Shown piece after piece: positions 22,377-34,786 of a stretch of DNA of 34,786 bases. Position 1 is the stretch's first letter. Every line of letters starts with the position of its first letter. The stretch covers positions 1-34,786 of the IMG/VR virus record IMGVR_UViG_3300020045_006313; one strand, given 5' to 3'. The stretch is from a virus (Duplodnaviria > Caudoviricetes). The notes beneath the pieces are model-generated. The model had not been told where the DNA came from. It did no database searches and saw nothing but the letters and a program-made list of their open reading frames with translations. A program made the position numbers and the translations under genes.

Positions 22377-22437
22377 TTTTTGGTGAATATATCTTTAATA
22401 GAAAAAATGGTTAAATTTGATGTTGAGGGGGAACTTT

Positions 22438-23124
22438 ATGAAAGACGCTGAATCGAGGCGCAAAGTGCTGGCTGATTTTGTGAAAAGTTATACATTAAGT
22501 GAAGCCAGTAAAATTTTAGGAAAGCCTGATCGTCAAGTTAATGACATGCTGGCTGGCCGGAAATCGTTTGGCTCAAAAGTAGCACGGGCAATGGAAAGAC
22601 ACGCAGTTGAAAATTTTGGTAAGTTGAATTTATTTTATTTTGAAGGGATTGATAAAGATCATGCGCCCCATGATGATGAAGTAGTACGTGACGGTTTAGA
22701 CGGTTACTTAAAAGTACCGTTTATTGGAAATAAAGAGCCAATTGGCAAAATTAACCAAGAAGCCGAGACAATTGCAAGCCTAATATGCCTTTCTAAGCAA
22801 TGGATTAATAAAAACCTACCATTAACAGGCGACATTCAAAAACTGGCATTCACTTATGTTGTAGGCGATTCGATGCAACCAACGCTTAATAACGGTGATA
22901 TGTTGTTAATTGATACCAGCATTAACACCACAATCGAAGATTCAATTTACGCTTTAGAAGTTAATGAAAAATTTATAATTAAAAGGGTTCGCCAACGTTT
23001 CGACGGATCATACGAGATTAGTTCAGATAACTTAGCGGTGAAAACTGTTGATATTCTCAACGATGAGTTTAAGATAAAAGTAGTCGGCCGCGCTGTTTGG
23101 GCGTGGCATGGTAAAAGAGTTTAG
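22438..23124 (+). CDS. cI: CI-like repressor with S24 peptidase domain (start revised to ATG 22438)
   Basis: N-terminal HTH; VVGDSMQPTLNNGDMLLID (Ser) and IIKRV (Lys); GAGGGGG SD. Confidence 0.9.
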   Translation: MKDAESRRKVLADFVKSYTLSEASKILGKPDRQVNDMLAGRKSFGSKVARAMERHAVENFGKLNLFYFEGIDKDHAPHDDEVVRDGLDGYLKVPFIGNKEPIGKINQEAETIASLICLSKQWINKNLPLTGDIQKLAFTYVVGDSMQPTLNNGDMLLIDTSINTTIEDSIYALEVNEKFIIKRVRQRFDGSYEISSDNLAVKTVDILNDEFKIKVVGRAVWAWHGKRV

Positions 23125-28214: not shown

Positions 28215-29054
28215 GTGAGTGAAATTCAAAAAACCGAGGCCGAAGTGATCGCCTCATTAGTACACAAGCCGTTTGTTCAAGTGATTGAAGGCGTGCCATA
28301 TTTTTTCATTCAGAATGAAAATGGCGCATGGTTTTGTGAAGATAAACGATCATTATTGCCGGCGCCTGTTCGTAAATATGGATCAACAAACGTTCATGAG
28401 GTGGATAGCTTTGTTAAGTTTTGCAAAATTCACGGATCACTTGCAAATGCAATGATTTATCTTGATGTTAATTACCTCACCCAAGCGATTAAAGCCACTG
28501 CAGTTTTTAACGATCATGTTGCGGATAAAACAGGCTGGCGCGATCACACCGCCGTATTTGTACCGCGCAAAAGCGCCGAGTGGGAGCGTTGGAATAATTA
28601 CAACGGCAAAGCGCAAAGCCAAGAAGAATTTGCAACATTCCTCGTATCAATTATTGGCGACATTACTTCACCAGCTGGATCAAAACTCCCTACTGGATCC
28701 GATGTATTAACCTTCGTTTCACAGCTCCAAGAAACGCGTACCGTGAAGTATGGCAGCGCAATTAATCTACAAAATGGCACGGTGCAATTAGAGTTTACCG
28801 AAGATGGTGACAAAGGCACCAAGGGCAAATTAGAAGTGTTTAAAGAATTTGCCCTTGGGATCAAGCCATTTTTTGGCGGCGACGCTTATGAGTTGCGCGC
28901 ATTCTTGCGCTACCGCATTGATCGTAACAATGGCGCCATTAAATTTTGGTTTGATCTGCAGCGCCCTGATCGCGTGCTAGAGGATGCAGCCAAAGAGCTG
29001 ATCAACAAAATTAACACCGAAACTGGCTTACCGGTTATTTACGGCACGCCTTAA
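28215..29054 (+). CDS. DUF2303 (YfdQ-like) protein
   Basis: AVFNDH..GWRDHTA..SAEWERW..QEEFA.F..F.LGI.PF.GG..Y...A.LRYRI; TAGGAG SD with GTG start. Confidence 0.85.
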   Translation: MSEIQKTEAEVIASLVHKPFVQVIEGVPYFFIQNENGAWFCEDKRSLLPAPVRKYGSTNVHEVDSFVKFCKIHGSLANAMIYLDVNYLTQAIKATAVFNDHVADKTGWRDHTAVFVPRKSAEWERWNNYNGKAQSQEEFATFLVSIIGDITSPAGSKLPTGSDVLTFVSQLQETRTVKYGSAINLQNGTVQLEFTEDGDKGTKGKLEVFKEFALGIKPFFGGDAYELRAFLRYRIDRNNGAIKFWFDLQRPDRVLEDAAKELINKINTETGLPVIYGTP

Positions 29055-29070
29055 TTTTAAATTGAAGTAA

Positions 29071-29094
29071 GCGCCGGCGTTATGTCGCTGGCGC
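29071..29094 (+). terminator. GC-rich stem-loop after DUF2303
   Basis: GCGCCGGCG-TTATGT-CGCTGGCGC; no U-tract. Confidence 0.45.
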
Positions 29095-29113
29095 ATTAAC
29101 GGATGATTACGCA

Positions 29114-29320
29114 ATGAAAATTTTATCTATAAATTGGTCTAGCAATACAGACAATACAAAAATCACTTTTACGGATGATTTTTTGCAGGCTGACAGAATT
29201 ACAAAGCTGGACGTATTGCAAGATATAGGCGTAATGATTGACGAGATATATAGCGACACACTTGCGCAAATTGAAGAAGGCACGTCTTTTATTGATAAAA
29301 CTTATAAAAGGTATGAATAA
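29114..29320 (+). CDS. Hypothetical protein
   Basis: 68-aa ORF, AT-rich. Confidence 0.65.
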   Translation: MKILSINWSSNTDNTKITFTDDFLQADRITKLDVLQDIGVMIDEIYSDTLAQIEEGTSFIDKTYKRYE

Positions 29321-29322
29321 TC

Positions 29323-29406
29323 ATGGCTAAACAGAAAAAACCAAAAGGATCAGGACGCCGCGCACGTAAAGACGGCGCTGATCGTAAACGTAACCCCGAA
29401 TATTAA
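29323..29406 (+). CDS. Very basic 27-aa peptide (not in ORF track)
   Basis: MAKQKKPKGSGRRARKDGADRKRNPEY; ATG 2 nt after the upstream stop. Confidence 0.5.
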   Translation: MAKQKKPKGSGRRARKDGADRKRNPEY

Positions 29407-29412
29407 TCGCTT

Positions 29413-29501
29413 GGCTGGCTTAACCAGCCCCGTCAATGCAAGTCATTCAGTGTTTATATTGTTAATTGACCACTTTCAATAGAGTGACTTGCAATGACGG
29501 G
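29413..29501 (+). ncRNA. Structured RNA element: short hairpin plus long 20-bp hairpin
   Basis: GGCTGG/CCAGCC (29413-29429); CCCGTCAATGCAAGTCATTC (29429-29448) pairs with GAGTGACTTGCAATGACGGG (29482-29501), one mismatch and one G-U. Confidence 0.55.
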
Positions 29502-29532
29502 ATCTTAAAAATTTAAATTGGAGCAATAGAAA

Positions 29533-29709
29533 ATGGATTATTTAATAGTTGCAGTATTTAGCATGACCGTAACAGCGATGTTGTTTACATTTATCGTCAT
29601 GAAAATGAAGCATTTAGTGGCAGTTATTGAGCGTAATGGTAGGTTTGAAGTGACTTACTTGGGTAAAAATTACGAATTAAAGCCAGTTGATGAAATTGAG
29701 TTTTATTAA
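29533..29709 (+). CDS. Small single-TM protein, 58 aa (not in ORF track)
   Basis: MDYLIVAVFSMTVTAMLFTFIVMKMKHLVAVIERNGRFEVTYLGKNYELKPVDEIEFY; GGAG SD. Confidence 0.7.
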   Translation: MDYLIVAVFSMTVTAMLFTFIVMKMKHLVAVIERNGRFEVTYLGKNYELKPVDEIEFY

Positions 29710-29762
29710 ATTTGATACTTCGTTTGAAGATAAAAAACACTTAATAAATGATATTGGAGTGA

Positions 29763-29999
29763 ATGATGCAATTAACATTAATTAATAGATTGAAAATATG
29801 CTTTGAAGTTTTAACAATTAGAAGTGGACATAAACACCCTGCTTCTGAAAAACAACTTTCTACATTTTTGCATGGATATAGTTATGGATTTGACGATGGT
29901 GAAATTTACGAAAGAGAACATGGGCATAAATACAAAATAAATATTGAAGAATTTACATTGCCACCTGTGAATTTACCAGTTTTGGGGCGTGCGAAATGA
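29763..29999 (+). CDS. Hypothetical protein
   Basis: GGAG SD; ATGA overlap with the next gene. Confidence 0.65.
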   Translation: MMQLTLINRLKICFEVLTIRSGHKHPASEKQLSTFLHGYSYGFDDGEIYEREHGHKYKINIEEFTLPPVNLPVLGRAK

Positions 30000-30610
30000 C
30001 TGATCACAACATAACCCACGAATGGAAAGGCGAAGGCATAACGGCCACGGCCAAGCCGGTTTGCTCATGCGGCTGGCAAGGCTGGACTGAAAGCCAAAGT
30101 AACGATTATTTTCATTCTAATTTAGCGGATCAGGAACGGGATCACTTAAAAAACATTGCAGATATTCAGCGTAAATTTGGCGATCTTTTGCAAGAGGTTA
30201 AAAGTTTTGATTATGGCCAAACGCTGGATGCAGTTAATCGCTTTTTTAATAAACGAATCATGTTTTTAAAGGATCAAACCGACTATTTTCAAACGCTCAT
30301 AGAAACGCTTGAGCGCGGCGCTGGCGATTGTGAGGATTATGCGATCGCTAAATATAAAACGCTGCAGGGGCTTAACATTTACGATCTGCATTTAGCTTAC
30401 GTGCTAACGCCCTACGATCAGGCGCACATGGTTTGCATTTGCGGTGAGTACGTCCTAGACAATCTATGTGAAGGCGTTTATTACAAAGCGGATCTGTACC
30501 AATTAATTTATATGTTCGACGACGAGAATCTAATTATTGGCAATAGAGTAGAAAATGCGCGGCAACATTTAAGCCGTTGGGATGATGTTTTGAATAGGAT
30601 GACTGGGTAA
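29996..30610 (+). CDS. Transglutaminase-like cysteine protease (BTLCP/peptidase C93, LapG-like) with N-terminal CSCGW zinc-finger-like segment
   Basis: VNRFFN, GAGDCEDYAIAKY (Cys), AHMV (His), VLDNL (Asp); no signal peptide. Confidence 0.88.
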   Translation: MTDHNITHEWKGEGITATAKPVCSCGWQGWTESQSNDYFHSNLADQERDHLKNIADIQRKFGDLLQEVKSFDYGQTLDAVNRFFNKRIMFLKDQTDYFQTLIETLERGAGDCEDYAIAKYKTLQGLNIYDLHLAYVLTPYDQAHMVCICGEYVLDNLCEGVYYKADLYQLIYMFDDENLIIGNRVENARQHLSRWDDVLNRMTG

Positions 30611-30774
30611 TGAGCGAAAAAAACAAAATATCAGCGTCATCAAATGGCAGCCCGCCATTAAGCGGTGCTGAATTTTTTGCACGCTTGATTATCAGCATGG
30701 AATCAAAGCCAAAAGTTAAGCTCGTTTCCGAAACGGCACAATCGCATAAGATTGTATCGGAAAAGCGGGGATAA
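30610..30774 (+). CDS. 54-aa protein, candidate recombination directionality factor (not in ORF track)
   Basis: MSEKNKISASSNGSPPLSGAEFFARLIISMESKPKVKLVSETAQSHKIVSEKRG; TAATG coupling to the upstream gene; convergent overlap with int; stop inside attP. Confidence 0.6.
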   Translation: MSEKNKISASSNGSPPLSGAEFFARLIISMESKPKVKLVSETAQSHKIVSEKRG

Positions 30775-32272
30775 ACTCGCTTCCCCGTGGGGACGCCAGC
30801 TTATCCCCTGTTACGTTAGCAATTTTATATGTAACAGTGGCTTGCATCGTTGATTCATCTAATGTGATCAATTCAACGATACTGGCAATTGCTTCTTTCA
30901 ATAGCGGTGTATCATCGCCGCTTAGTTGATCCGTAATTATTCTAAGCATAGATTTAATGTCGCTTAGTTTTAAATCTCGTAATGTTTTACTGTTACTTTC
31001 CGATTCCCTAAATTCTTCGACTTGTTTTTTTAAGTCATCACGTTCATTTTCAATTTTTTCAATACTTCGCATTAAAGTTGCGTGCGCCGTTGTTTGCGTG
31101 AGTAATTCGGCTAGGCTATGCGCTTGACGATCTAATTCATTAATTCTTGAAGTTAATTTACTAAGCGTTTTATCTTTATTGGCCGGCTTGGCCATGGCTT
31201 GATAATGTTTTAATACGGCGCTTGCAAATAGATCACTTGAAATGTCATTCTTTATACAATCTAAGACCGCAGTTTCGACATTTTTGGCCAGCACGCGCTT
31301 ACCCTTACCAAGTCTATAAAATCCGTCACCGCTACCATGCCACATAAGCCCGTCGGGACTTTTCAACAAACCAGCCAATAGATACACATTAATCGCTTGC
31401 CTTGCCCGCGTTACCTTGCGCTCTTCGACTTGCTTTAATATGGCGTGGGCTTCTTCTTCGCTAATTAATGGTTCATGCGTATTGCGCTGAATTACCCATT
31501 CTTTTTGATCGCGGTATTTTTGGCCGCCAACATACCCGCCGCCTTCTGCTTTTTCAGCGTGACGATTCCAAACAGTATGGCCGGCATAGGTGAGCGCGTT
31601 GCGCTCCATGCTTAATAATGTAGTCACTGGCCAGTCTTGTTTAACGTAAGCCAATGACGCAGCTCGTGGTGCGCCTTTTGCGCGTTGCTGCATGTAGCCG
31701 CGTACCAATATTGCGTCGTCATTTGGTGCGAGCTTTGTTTTAGTCACTGCAATCCCTTCACGAATTGCACCGGTATTACTTGACTCTAATTTATAACCCT
31801 TGGGCGCGCTTCCGCCCGCCCTAAATCCTTGCTTAACGTTTTCGGCCATGCCGGATAAGCCTTTTGCCTTACTTGTTAAACTGTGCCATTCATCCATCGC
31901 CTGCAGGATCGACTTTAAAAGCATTTCTGTGATCGGATCTGATTCGGGCAGCGATTTATAAATCACTTTGATCCCGTTGCGCTTACATTCATGCTCTTCA
32001 AAAATAATTGAAATATGGCGGCGGCGGGCGATTCTTGAGGTGTCTAAAACTAATACGGTATTCCATCCCCGTTTTGGGTTGCGCATTTCTCGGAGCATGG
32101 CTTGAAAGCTTGGGCGATCGTCATCCTTGCCCGACTCTACGGCGTCGGCAAACTCTTTAATAATAAGAACGTCGCGGGCGATCGCAAGCTCGGCTAACTG
32201 CCTGCGTTGTGCGTCAATTGAAACGTCGGAACGGTCTTTACTTGACCTTAGATAGATAACGGCATTATTCAT
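30716..32272 (-). CDS. int: Large serine recombinase (phage integrase)
   Basis: AVIYLRSS catalytic motif, RPSFQAML, DTSRIARR, GFRAGGSAPKGY, HEPLISEE recombinase domain, coiled coil. Confidence 0.95.
   Translation of the reverse strand: MNNAVIYLRSSKDRSDVSIDAQRRQLAELAIARDVLIIKEFADAVESGKDDDRPSFQAMLREMRNPKRGWNTVLVLDTSRIARRRHISIIFEEHECKRNGIKVIYKSLPESDPITEMLLKSILQAMDEWHSLTSKAKGLSGMAENVKQGFRAGGSAPKGYKLESSNTGAIREGIAVTKTKLAPNDDAILVRGYMQQRAKGAPRAASLAYVKQDWPVTTLLSMERNALTYAGHTVWNRHAEKAEGGGYVGGQKYRDQKEWVIQRNTHEPLISEEEAHAILKQVEERKVTRARQAINVYLLAGLLKSPDGLMWHGSGDGFYRLGKGKRVLAKNVETAVLDCIKNDISSDLFASAVLKHYQAMAKPANKDKTLSKLTSRINELDRQAHSLAELLTQTTAHATLMRSIEKIENERDDLKKQVEEFRESESNSKTLRDLKLSDIKSMLRIITDQLSGDDTPLLKEAIASIVELITLDESTMQATVTYKIANVTGDKLASPRGSEFIPAFPIQSYAIVPFRKRA
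30767..30808. other. attP site (serine-integrase type) containing the tRNA-Glu 3' end
   Basis: GGGGATAAACTCGCTTCCCC-GT-GGGGACGCCAGCTTATCCCC: 20-bp arms match at 17/20 as an inverted repeat around GT (30787-30788). TCCCCGTGGGGACGCCA (30782-30798) matches the 3' end of proteobacterial tRNA-Glu. Confidence 0.88.
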
Positions 32273-32279
32273 GCTGCCA

Positions 32280-32309
32280 ATTATGTGAGTAGATGATCAA
32301 TTTTGTAAA
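32280..32309 (-). promoter_or_regulatory. Putative int promoter (leaderless mRNA)
   Basis: Minus strand TTTACA, 18 bp, CATAAT, 7 nt, ATG; no SD. Confidence 0.6.
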
Positions 32310-32342
32310 GCCGAATATGCTGTCCATAACTGTAGGATAGGT

Positions 32343-32387
32343 AAAAAAATACCCATGGCGTATAGTGCAGCCATGGGTAAAATTTTT
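32343..32387 (-). terminator. Terminator of the late transcript (possibly bidirectional)
   Basis: TACCCATGGC (32350-32359) / GCCATGGGTA (32370-32379) perfect 10-bp stem; T7 run follows on the minus strand and T5 nearby on the plus strand. Confidence 0.7.
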
Positions 32388-32462
32388 GCGTTTGTTGGTT
32401 GGTGCGTTTTAATCGTTTCGATCTTATGGCCAATTATTGAGAATTGGAACCGGCTTTTTTAA
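32373..32462 (+). CDS. Small hydrophobic peptide, 29 aa (35 aa from ATG 32355; not in ORF track)
   Basis: MGKIFAFVGWCVLIVSILWPIIENWNRLF; TATAGT 6 nt upstream of the ATG. Confidence 0.4.
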   Translation: MGKIFAFVGWCVLIVSILWPIIENWNRLF

Positions 32463-34786
32463 CCATGTTATTTAGTCGAAGCATTTGAGAAGTAATCCGT
32501 TCGTCGATCGCTGCGATTTCTTTACGCGATGCTTTGCGCTCAATTAGACCACGTTTGATTTTACGTTGACGTGATACATAGCGCGCTGAATTGTTAGCCG
32601 CCCAAATGATTTCACTCAATGGATTTTCTTTTTTAAATTCCTCTACTTCTAATCCATCTTCGCGGCGCCCTTTCAATTCCGTTTCAACTTTGTAAATTTC
32701 CTCAAGGTTTGAATAGAATTTAGCGGACTGTGAAGATTGCCCCGCAGCGTCGCCATAAAAACGGCCAACAAGCGGGATCTTATAAGTTGGTAAATCTTGG
32801 CCAGTAAACAATGCGCTCAATGTTTGATCAACCTTCATCGCCTCGCGCCCTACACCGCCAAATGTTTGGCCAATTAAATAATCAACTTGATCCGGCGTCG
32901 GGCTAAATATCCCCTTGGTGTAATCTGTACCAAATGACAAGTAATTAATTGCGTAAGATATACCGCGGCCTATTGAGCTTGCGCTGTCTTTCACGCGCGT
33001 ATGGCCAGCCGTTTCTTTCAGTGAATTAAAGTCTTTAATGGCAATGTTGCGGCCAGTAAAATCCGTGTTCATTGATAAATCGACGATTGGATCTGCAACC
33101 GTTGGCGCCATGATGTTAAGCGGTGATCCGCTGCCGCCTATCGGGTTGAGTACGTCCATCATCATTGTGATCAAATGCTCAAAACGTTTTGGTGAGTCCT
33201 CAAAGCCTGATAGCGCCCATTCGGTAATGATCCGGCCAAGGTTTGGGATCGCGTTATATCCTAAAGGCATGGGTACGGTTGCATATTTTCGATCAATGCC
33301 GACAAAATCAAGCGGGATCACAATATTGCGATCTTTGATAAATTCCGGCGGTTCGTCATCTTCATAGCCACTTAATGACAATGTTAAGGCCTGCAGCATA
33401 CCTAGTGCCAAGCCGCCGCCCACAATTTGCGCGCCACGGCGTCCTGTGAGCGTTTCAGCAATACGGACGGAGCCTTGCATCGCAGCATTAAAGAATGCAT
33501 ACAGTGAGCCAATGGTGCGGGCTTTATAGCCTTTACGATTAAAGTTGACTGAAATATTCTTGGCAAGGCTGGCCGCTTGCTGCTTAGATAATCCTTGCTC
33601 TTTCGCCACTTTGTACGCGGATAAACGCACCGCATTTTCAAGCGTTTCGTTATAGTCACTTAGCCAGTCAAATACCGGTTTAATGACTTTATCCATGGCG
33701 GCCTGCTCAACGTCGGCCACTTTGCCATTACCAAATGAAACTACCTTGCCGGCCGTCGTTTGTTTCCACCAAGTCGGATCTAGTGCCTTTTTCAATGCGT
33801 CCGTGCGATCGTCGGCATTTTTAAACATATCACGGTACCCAGTTTGTCCGCCCTCGTTTTGAAATTCCTCCCAAAGCTCAACCATTTCTTGCGCTTCTAG
33901 CTTTTGCTTCTGTGTGAATTTACCAAACTGCATAGGATTTTTAACGCCGTTTTGCTTTCTAACGGCCTGATAAATGCCTCTGAGCGCTGGCAGTGTATTT
34001 TTGGCGACTTCTTTTTGCTTGCCGGCGATCTGTGTCGTCGTTAAATTAAGCATTGAGCCTTGAATGTCGCGCGTGATGTTTAATATGCCAAAAATTGGAT
34101 TATATTGCGTGTTCACGCTTGAGAAATAACGCGTAAATTTAGATGCAATTTCTAGCCATTCCTCGGTGCGTGCTAACTCAAGGTTTTTGATCCCTGCGGC
34201 CGTACTCATTGCGCGCTTGTTAAATTCATTAAATACGACGGATTTTTCAACGATCTCGCCTTTTAAGTTTTTAACGCGCGCCACGACTACGTTTGGTTCC
34301 CCTTTGTAATTGCGATCGACAACGCGCTCCATGAGCCCAGTTTTAGGGTTCATTACTTTGATCATGGGTGGATTATCAACCTTCCAAAAATCATCGTTCG
34401 GGTTAAGCTTGGCCATGCCGACTAACGCCGTGGCCACGCGATTTTTTTCACCGCGCACGATGTTTGTTTCGCGCTGCTCAATGATATTGGCCAGTACGTT
34501 GACGACGTTGCGATTAGATCCGAATGCTTGCTTCATGGCGCCGCCACGGACGGAAAAGCCTTGGCCGGTACCATTCCCATATTCGCCGTCCATATCTTCA
34601 CGTTTCAATGGTACGTAATGCTTGTAAGTGCTTTCCCATTGTTTGATCGTGCCGGCGGACTCTAAATCATAGTCGATCAATACTTGATTGTTTTCTTTGT
34701 TCATCGCGTCAACGCGTTTGGCCAACGCTTCAAAGTCGCGCTTTTGATCTGCAGTTAAGCCGGCCAAATATTTGCGCGCGTCCTTG
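32434..34786 (-). CDS. Giant internal virion/DNA-ejection protein, C-terminal part (LPD38-type region); 5'-truncated by window
   Basis: Frame open to the window edge; YKHYVPLKR, YNPIF..NITRD, ENAVRLSAY..AKNISVNFNRKG..LYAFFNA, NTDFTGRNI, SPTPDQVDYLIGQ..GGVG, IPLVGRFY motifs. Confidence 0.8.
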   Translation of the reverse strand, partial: KDARKYLAGLTADQKRDFEALAKRVDAMNKENNQVLIDYDLESAGTIKQWESTYKHYVPLKREDMDGEYGNGTGQGFSVRGGAMKQAFGSNRNVVNVLANIIEQRETNIVRGEKNRVATALVGMAKLNPNDDFWKVDNPPMIKVMNPKTGLMERVVDRNYKGEPNVVVARVKNLKGEIVEKSVVFNEFNKRAMSTAAGIKNLELARTEEWLEIASKFTRYFSSVNTQYNPIFGILNITRDIQGSMLNLTTTQIAGKQKEVAKNTLPALRGIYQAVRKQNGVKNPMQFGKFTQKQKLEAQEMVELWEEFQNEGGQTGYRDMFKNADDRTDALKKALDPTWWKQTTAGKVVSFGNGKVADVEQAAMDKVIKPVFDWLSDYNETLENAVRLSAYKVAKEQGLSKQQAASLAKNISVNFNRKGYKARTIGSLYAFFNAAMQGSVRIAETLTGRRGAQIVGGGLALGMLQALTLSLSGYEDDEPPEFIKDRNIVIPLDFVGIDRKYATVPMPLGYNAIPNLGRIITEWALSGFEDSPKRFEHLITMMMDVLNPIGGSGSPLNIMAPTVADPIVDLSMNTDFTGRNIAIKDFNSLKETAGHTRVKDSASSIGRGISYAINYLSFGTDYTKGIFSPTPDQVDYLIGQTFGGVGREAMKVDQTLSALFTGQDLPTYKIPLVGRFYGDAAGQSSQSAKFYSNLEEIYKVETELKGRREDGLEVEEFKKENPLSEIIWAANNSARYVSRQRKIKRGLIERKASRKEIAAIDERITSQMLRLNNMVKKAGSNSQ

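Follow-up and report, generated by a model that had tools for sequence, protein, structure and literature searches.

The window analysed here (34,786 nucleotides) represents one 34.8-kb virus record. Its genes include those for terminase, portal and head proteins, RecT, an exonuclease, SSB and a repressor-like protein. The minus strand encodes, at 30716..32272, a large serine integrase of 518 amino acids (P0001) in the free-phage form, and the plus strand carries a 54-aa ORF (30610..30774) that overlaps the tail-encoding end of the integrase gene (int) by 59 nt. The start of this ORF overlaps the stop of a plus-strand gene for a transglutaminase-like cysteine proteinase (29996-30610, PF06035). 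On the other side of int lies a minus-strand gene for an LPD38-domain large polyvalent protein (32434-34786), which is cut by the contig end. A hairpin with A/T-rich flanks at about 32345-32385, between the LPD38 gene and int, pairs at 13 of 20 arm positions and is possibly a terminator, although the terminator scan did not call it. Promoter and terminator scans gave results at chance level (5 versus 5.0 and 2 versus 4.0), an Rfam scan of 29000-33000 returned only three matches, all at chance level, and no tRNA gene was found within the 34.8-kb window.

The integrase contains a Resolvase domain (PF00239, E 1e-17) and, at residues 211-285, a Recombinase domain (PF07508) that scored above the curated cut-off, showing that DBD1 is present after helix E. 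Residues Y7, R9 and S11, which form the Y-x-R-x-S catalytic serine motif, are invariant in 64 relatives, and the N-terminal region aligns with the catalytic domain of TP901-1. In the AlphaFold model, DBD2 consists of strands at 310-328 and 466-482 with an inserted coiled coil of long helices at 366-432. The PHROGs match of the protein was phrog_95 (integrase), and the top Foldseek matches of the full-length model were serine integrase-att complexes in the PDB (E 3e-16); structural alignments with canonical large serine integrases showed 15-17% identity. Zinc-binding cysteines in DBD2 are common among large serine integrases, though not universal. Neither a zinc-ribbon Pfam match in the integrase nor an invariant Cys in its DBD2 region was found here. 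An annotated phage collection contained 23 records matching the integrase, all at less than 60% identity.

The attP site inside the integrase gene

A preliminary description of this DNA had proposed a 42-bp site with inverted-repeat arms around a central GT that lies inside int and targets tRNA-Glu. The letters of the site are as quoted there, and 17 of 20 arm positions of the inverted repeat at 30767-30808 are complementary around GT 30787-30788. In a window-wide scan for 20-bp arms with a 2-bp spacer, this repeat scored highest (17, runner-up 14), and 20 base shuffles of the window gave maxima of 13-15. The site falls within the last 31 codons of the 518-aa minus-strand ORF, whose frame reads it as GDKLASPRGSEFIP. 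Because phage genes flank 30767-30808 on both sides, the window shows the unintegrated state. The symmetry axis and the covariation of the arms in 52 relatives suggest that attP extends over 30763..30812, approximately 24 bp per side; an attP of about 50 bp with inverted arms and a 2-bp centre shared with attB is found here. The repressor-like gene (22417-23124, PF00717) is located approximately 8 kb from attP.

The central GT (30787..30788, plus strand), the predicted crossover point, corresponds to positions 65-66 of tRNA-Glu in standard numbering. The following ten bases (30789..30798, plus strand) are a copy of the last ten bases of the tRNA-Glu genes that ARAGORN identified in related loci, and integration would restore the tRNA from this copy. 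By codon arithmetic, the GT spans codons P495 and R496, and R496 and G497 are unchanged on the tRNA side. Because these two residues are identical, the exchange would take out residues 498-518 (21 aa) and put 7 residues in their place. Codons 498-518 with the stop (30716..30781, minus strand) therefore constitute the swappable tail, with a strand predicted by AlphaFold at 507-511 and a basic, Ala-ending terminus (...AIVPFRKRA). The stretch 30716-30774 has a triple use as int tail, as C-terminus of the 54-aa ORF on the opposite strand and as part of the attP arm.

Two tail states among relatives

We read the tails in the best 120 of 1258 homologous proteins. Following ASPR, these have either a short tail of the GFEPRxPP type or a long one, mostly ending in RRRA, RRAA or RRAL. 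At the DNA level, we compiled 240 loci by taking the 80 best from each of three collections: viral (94 confirmed candidates), genome (139) and metagenome (224). The int frame ended antisense inside an ARAGORN tRNA-Glu gene in 61 genome, 32 metagenome and 12 viral loci (80 of each), and the proposed tRNA-Glu target is thereby upheld in 105 of 240 related loci. The overlapped gene was tRNA-Glu in all 105, with the anticodon TTC in 101 and CTC in 4, and the overlap measured 41 nt in 98 loci, 57 nt in 4, 32 nt in 2 and 40 nt in 1. Many further viral contigs stop precisely at the stop codon of the short tail.

For the tail statistics, we used 208 loci, including the window, in which the match reached residue 480 and a stop. 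The core was in the frame of the window in 187 of these, and 21 loci with flipped cores, other frames or breaks were omitted. The in-frame loci comprised 117 of the integrated form and 70 of the free form, the latter reduced to 52 by dereplication. It had been predicted that integration replaces the tail with approximately FEPRLPP-stop; all 117 integrated-form loci have tRNA-derived tails, and 15 of them carry exactly RGFEPRLPP. The three closest proteins (72-74% identity, among the best 120 of 1258) end in FEPRSPP. Because these end in FEPRSPP and not in FEPRLPP, the exact tail depends on the host allele. Alleles of the tRNA encoding FEPRSPP were found in Methylotenera and Methylophilaceae loci and in one Silanimonas locus, and the host of the window phage is only suggested by this distribution.

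On a FastTree tree of 162 integrase bodies, free and integrated forms interleave, requiring 41 changes (shuffles: mean 52, minimum 42), and the nearest neighbours of the window are one free-form and one integrated-form locus. Within the family of genome G001, 70 of 101 genomes had the GT-type tRNA-Glu end, and 5 of 301 had a relative of the integrase.

Far ends of integrated elements and the crossover point

A second core on the same contig and on the side of the element was detected in 13 of the 25 genomes searched and was absent there in the other 12. Twelve of the 13 elements are in the orientation of the window and span 4.9-101 kb, and the 13th has a flipped core. In all 12 (12/12), the dinucleotide was identical at both ends and the tail codons were in frame at the far end. 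Between the far-end arm and the integrase-side arm, 12-20 of 26 positions paired, compared with 7-12 for the tRNA side. Six of the 12 attR tails end in Ala, and one reads through beyond KRKAA. Body and tail of int are thus split between the two ends of the element in relatives, in agreement with the proposal that attP lies inside int. Far-end candidates on other contigs for loci L035 and L044 had an unconvincing arm or tail, and the two candidates for L048 are probably parts of other elements; these were kept outside the 12. The same integrase system moves islands of 4.9-9.9 kb (L034, L033, L076 and L085) besides phage-sized elements of 30-50 kb. Carriers available in culture are Nitrosospira multiformis Nl18 (L063), Ampullimonas aquatilis LMG 28208 (L039) and Lysobacter brunescens CCUG 55585 (L082).

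In the 52 free-form sites, the axis of symmetry coincided with the dinucleotide, with 7.9 of 13 outer pairs compared with at most 5.4 for other axes, and the dinucleotide axis was best or tied in 33 of 52 sites. Outer arms paired with their own partner at 8.3 of 14 positions and with those of other sites at 5.4 (0 of 10,000 permutations, not corrected for kinship). The site and the tRNA have in common ten bases on one side and roughly two on the other, so that identity by itself confines the crossover to 14 bases; we placed it at the GT because of the symmetry and the 2-nt overhang mechanism of serine integrases (10.1101/2025.01.03.631226). Comparison of the relatives' sequences showed two tail states, a body and tail split across the element ends, a restored tRNA and, as judged from these, tails that are reversibly exchanged. 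This family-wide anatomy of the tail swap is well supported, and attP, the tRNA-Glu target and the tail swap can, through the relatives, be assigned to the window phage with near certainty. A search for sequencing runs with junction reads gave none.

A candidate RDF gene next to the integrase gene

The 54-aa ORF ends with its stop inside the attP arm. No relatives of it turned up in searches with tblastn, phmmer, Pfam, PHROGs and the ESM Atlas, and blastp clustering of ORFs near int, a method that proved too insensitive, gave no family present in more than 9 of 142 loci. In many relatives, a short ORF with a strand-Gly-x-Pro-helix pattern lies directly upstream of int, and we built a profile HMM from 45 such hand-picked ORFs, excluding the window. 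The 54-aa ORF ranked first among 762 six-frame segments with 31 bits (E 1e-8), whereas the next segment scored 6 and shuffles reached at most 10.8. This profile match overturned the reading of the ORF as non-conserved, which the blank pairwise searches had suggested. In 191 of 229 loci (146 of 184 outside the seed), a family match of at least 18 bits was located immediately upstream of int, and a single match lay away from int in 1.67 Mb. In a large library, 141 clusters at 50% identity matched the profile, while Pfam gave three single-member weak matches and the PDB none.

In the window and in loci L005, L161 and L167, the gene converges on the int tail and ends with RG-stop in the att arm. 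In genome G324, it is located at attR, with an arm matching that of L007, and overlaps a tail ending NKRRA, with the tRNA-Asp of the host further out. In G006, 39.9 kb separate it from int, and the restored tRNA is next to it. Both genomes show the convergent layout split as expected on integration. The family was not found near int or at the far end in profile searches of G001, G024, G266, G277, G010, G014 and G023, and eight genome searches besides G324 and G006 gave weak matches or none. Large serine integrases recombine attP with attB in one direction, which a recombination directionality factor (RDF) reverses. Linkage, size and position make it probable that the 54-aa ORF encodes an RDF. 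In the free phage, transcripts of the early genes that run on would be antisense to int.

Composition of the tail and its possible role as a degron

Free-form tails are 16-37 residues long, counted from the core. Their last residue is Ala in 33 of 52 cases and their last two are Ala-Ala in 22 of 52, compared with 395 and 75 of 2682 control ends, respectively, the controls being stop-ended frames of at least 150 codons from the same loci, spurious frames included. None of the 117 integrated-form tails ends in Ala. Of the locus tails, 31 of 52 have at least two basic residues before a non-polar end, as do 50 of 68 protein-database tails (controls 177 of 2682), and acidic residues are depleted from the last five positions (4 of 52 tails versus 877 of 2682 controls). 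Among the protein-database tails, 45 of 68 end in Ala and only 3 of 68 in Ala-Ala; 19 of the 52 locus tails lack a terminal Ala. When the tails were thinned by tree distance, 20 of 31, 14 of 24 and 7 of 10 clusters had a majority of Ala ends. The endings RRAA, RRA and KVA are also kept in the WRPHG-frame subgroup and in flipped-core elements (see below).

The free-form tails resemble the ssrA and MuA tags (PMC8138137, PMC12723719) and, like the ClpX C-motif 1 and 2 degrons, have a free C-terminus in which basic residues are followed by a non-polar end, often Ala. The preliminary description had likened the basic FRKRA end to ClpX tags, and the composition of the tails fits such a tag. In the AlphaFold model of the 518-aa form, the last seven residues are coil. 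We slightly favour the view that the tail works mainly as a degron. Against it, the tail is not merely a free end if the predicted strand at 507-511 forms; the KRA ending of the window and the RRRA of most close relatives are not Ala-Ala; and the control ends include spurious frames and the tails are related by descent.

The Mu transpososome is remodelled by ClpX. The integrase tail might likewise be a MuA-like handle with which ClpX dismantles or remodels the integrase on product DNA, instead of setting its steady-state level. The frequency of basic residues before a non-polar end, as in the MuA C-motif 2 tag, is consistent with this idea, but according to PMC12884075 serine integrases work without host factors, and we regard it as improbable.

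Whether the tail matters at all bears on a further explanation, in which attP drifted into the end of int, both forms of the protein are alike, and the tail is a tolerated by-product kept as an ordinary terminus or through the overlapping att or ORF sequence. The att arm indeed fixes the first eight tail codons, and because the tail DNA in the subgroup of the window also codes for the 54-aa ORF, the tail sequence is constrained. The integrated tail is predicted to be disordered and may be harmless, and a trivial reading was listed for dsiB by McMurdie et al. (PMC3146451). Beyond the att arm, however, differences between the tails of 11 related pairs, two of them nearly duplicate, fell on codon positions 1, 2 and 3 in the numbers 24/19/67, with 52 synonymous versus 28 non-synonymous codons. 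This third-position bias argues against a by-product, as do the Ala-ending, basic and acid-poor ends that persist whatever the tail length, reading frame or core orientation. Free-form tails are, judged from their codons, under protein-level selection, and a mere by-product is highly improbable.

A structural alternative to the degron

The tail could instead be mainly a structural switch, with its strand packing on DBD2 at or near the RDF pocket, so that the free form would be integration-competent and RDF-resistant and the tail-less prophage form less active or biased towards excision. AlphaFold predicts the strand at 507-511 in the free-form tail (block pLDDT approximately 70), whereas the short tail of the integrated-form relative P0002 had a pLDDT below 50 over 487-504, indicating disorder. 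When the tail (489-518) was folded against residues 288-486, the score was 0.32, which is weak support, and the best of three controls reached 0.04. The tail-domain runs had a contact agreement of at least 57% and a partner pLDDT of at least 43, but one of the three scored only 0.02. Of 157 solved pairs, 116 reached the mark used for complexes, as did 2 of 215 mismatched pairs; with values of 0.60 or below, only 18 of the 157 and both mismatched pairs did so. This was a split-protein test, which two pieces of one protein may pass by likeness.

Because the extreme C-terminus of the SPbeta integrase (530-545, F532) borders the RDF pocket and excision depends on it (10.1101/2025.01.03.631226), a structural role stays a live rival. 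The shortened form of the Mx8 integrase is less active (PMC4701971), which would also fit. Because int directly follows the RDF-like gene in most loci, their co-expression would moreover need another switch, although an internal promoter might let int be expressed independently of the upstream gene. Against a structural switch, tails of such different lengths show little positional conservation beyond the att-coded Pro, their last residues being the conserved part, and comparison with the RDF-family profile showed no resemblance (best E 0.3). We consider this alternative rather unlikely, if worth keeping in view.

A proposed mechanism

The explanation that we prefer combines the tail swap with removal of a degron and an RDF encoded by the 54-aa ORF, and as a whole we give it a little better than an even chance. 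The integrase would cut at the central GT of attP and join it to the 3' end of the host tRNA-Glu gene; integration would restore the tRNA and swap the last 21 residues of the integrase for approximately 7 antisense-tRNA residues, a swap that likely removes a ClpXP-type degradation tag. The free phage would make a tagged, short-lived integrase, and the prophage an untagged, more stable one. Because the free-phage integrase would be short-lived, we propose that lysogeny is protease-sensitive and that re-integration after excision is damped. The 54-aa protein would be encoded by the last gene of a rightward early run and left at attR after integration. On induction, the early genes would supply it as the RDF, turning the prophage integrase to excision, and excision would give the tag back. 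We infer that the tail swap may act in this way as a switch of stability or directionality. In a more far-reaching version, which is speculative and which we doubt, a widespread proteobacterial serine-integrase family would carry the direction of recombination in the enzyme itself: the free tail would both block a new kind of RDF and serve as a ClpX tag; an RDF co-transcribed with int would act only on the tail-less form, and excision would restore the tail and thereby stop excision.

Comparison with known systems

Location of attP inside an integrase gene is already published for Mx8, DsiB and the rumA ICEs. In Mx8, attP is within the int coding sequence and integration gives a short new C-terminus (PMC6070905, PMC4701971), as for the window integrase. 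Mx8 Int is a tyrosine recombinase that loses 112 residues for 13, whereas the serine integrase of the window exchanges 21 for 7; in addition, the new tail comes here from the antisense strand of tRNA-Glu, and the end that is lost resembles a degron. The window integrase works like Mx8 Int but is no member of its group, being a serine and not a tyrosine recombinase. The large serine integrase DsiB of Dehalococcoides has a 3' end that always overlaps attL at the tmRNA gene, and a regulatory role of this arrangement was suggested (PMC3146451). It resembles the family of the window in that the 3' end of a serine integrase gene overlaps attL at a structural RNA gene, but its target is tmRNA, in contrast to tRNA-Glu in all 105 overlaps. 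In PMC3146451, the C-terminal part of DsiB is described as divergent, with no conserved tail or degron named. The ssrA islands of DsiB carry a six-gene integration module with dsiA, parB and mom; the window has the gene set of a tailed phage.

In streptococcal rumA ICEs, the att site is inside the serine integrase gene and the excised form differs at the C-terminus (PMC4701971). Unlike in the family of the window, their target is a protein gene, which is disrupted without restoration of a tRNA, and the passage in PMC4701971 mentions neither a degron nor a linked small factor. In mycobacteriophage BPs, recombination removes a C-terminal proteolysis tag of the repressor that is encoded beyond attP (PMC3694055). 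In BPs, the repressor gene contains attP, and the Int, a tyrosine recombinase, retains its own tag (PMC3694055); here, the integrase itself is edited, with attP in int and not in the repressor-like gene. SPbeta SprA/SprB, phiC31, Bxb1 and LI share with the window the domain order, a short inverted-repeat attP with a 2-bp centre and a small RDF, which is putative in the window. The window differs from these canonical serine integrases by the attP inside int, the tRNA target and a candidate RDF without a PDB chain or Pfam match.

A search of mostly open-access literature found no description of a tRNA-Glu serine-integrase family with a swappable tail, although mining tables may list such elements; the relevant parts of PMC12884075 and PMC7426155 contained nothing on it. 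The Islander paper (PMC4383910) says of serine integrases that tRNA genes are not among their known targets, a statement that the present family counters. Because serine integrases target a tRNA gene here, tRNA-based island finders limited to tyrosine integrases miss such elements. The family offers a natural case of recombination editing its own catalyst, with two isoforms, a mapped attP/attB pair and a candidate RDF, at a size suited to plasmid assays. For tool builders, it provides integrases aimed at a conserved tRNA-Glu site that is not disrupted; as a caution, int genes mined from prophage ends represent the truncated form.

Variant members of the integrase family

In a second orientation, the core of approximately 20 bp alone is flipped and the element inserts the other way round (loci L006/L244, L096, L097, L099, L101, L103, L134, L158, L174, L208, L212 and L222). 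In these elements, the int body runs into host DNA at attR and the tail is located behind the restored tRNA. Nine flipped-core tips, one of them frameshifted, need 6 changes on the tree, which suggests repeated flips. Hosts often have tRNA-Ala, Glu and Asp genes in a row, and insertion displaces the Asp gene to attR (L251, L274). Phage-form members with flipped cores carry a tRNA-Asp(GTC) gene 5-25 nt past the int stop (L096:3064-3140, L097:4362-4438, L101:4186-4262 and L222:1880-1956), and this phage copy may refill the host tRNA operon, reminiscent of the tRNA-dependent lysogeny described in PMC10865867.

In another subgroup, the int frame reads the core shifted by one base, giving WRPHG (L003, L004, L032, L175, L176 and L238; P0088, P0091, P0098-P0100, P0103 and P0105-P0107). 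Its members have a 57-nt tRNA overlap when integrated, and most of their free-form tails end in NRRAA.
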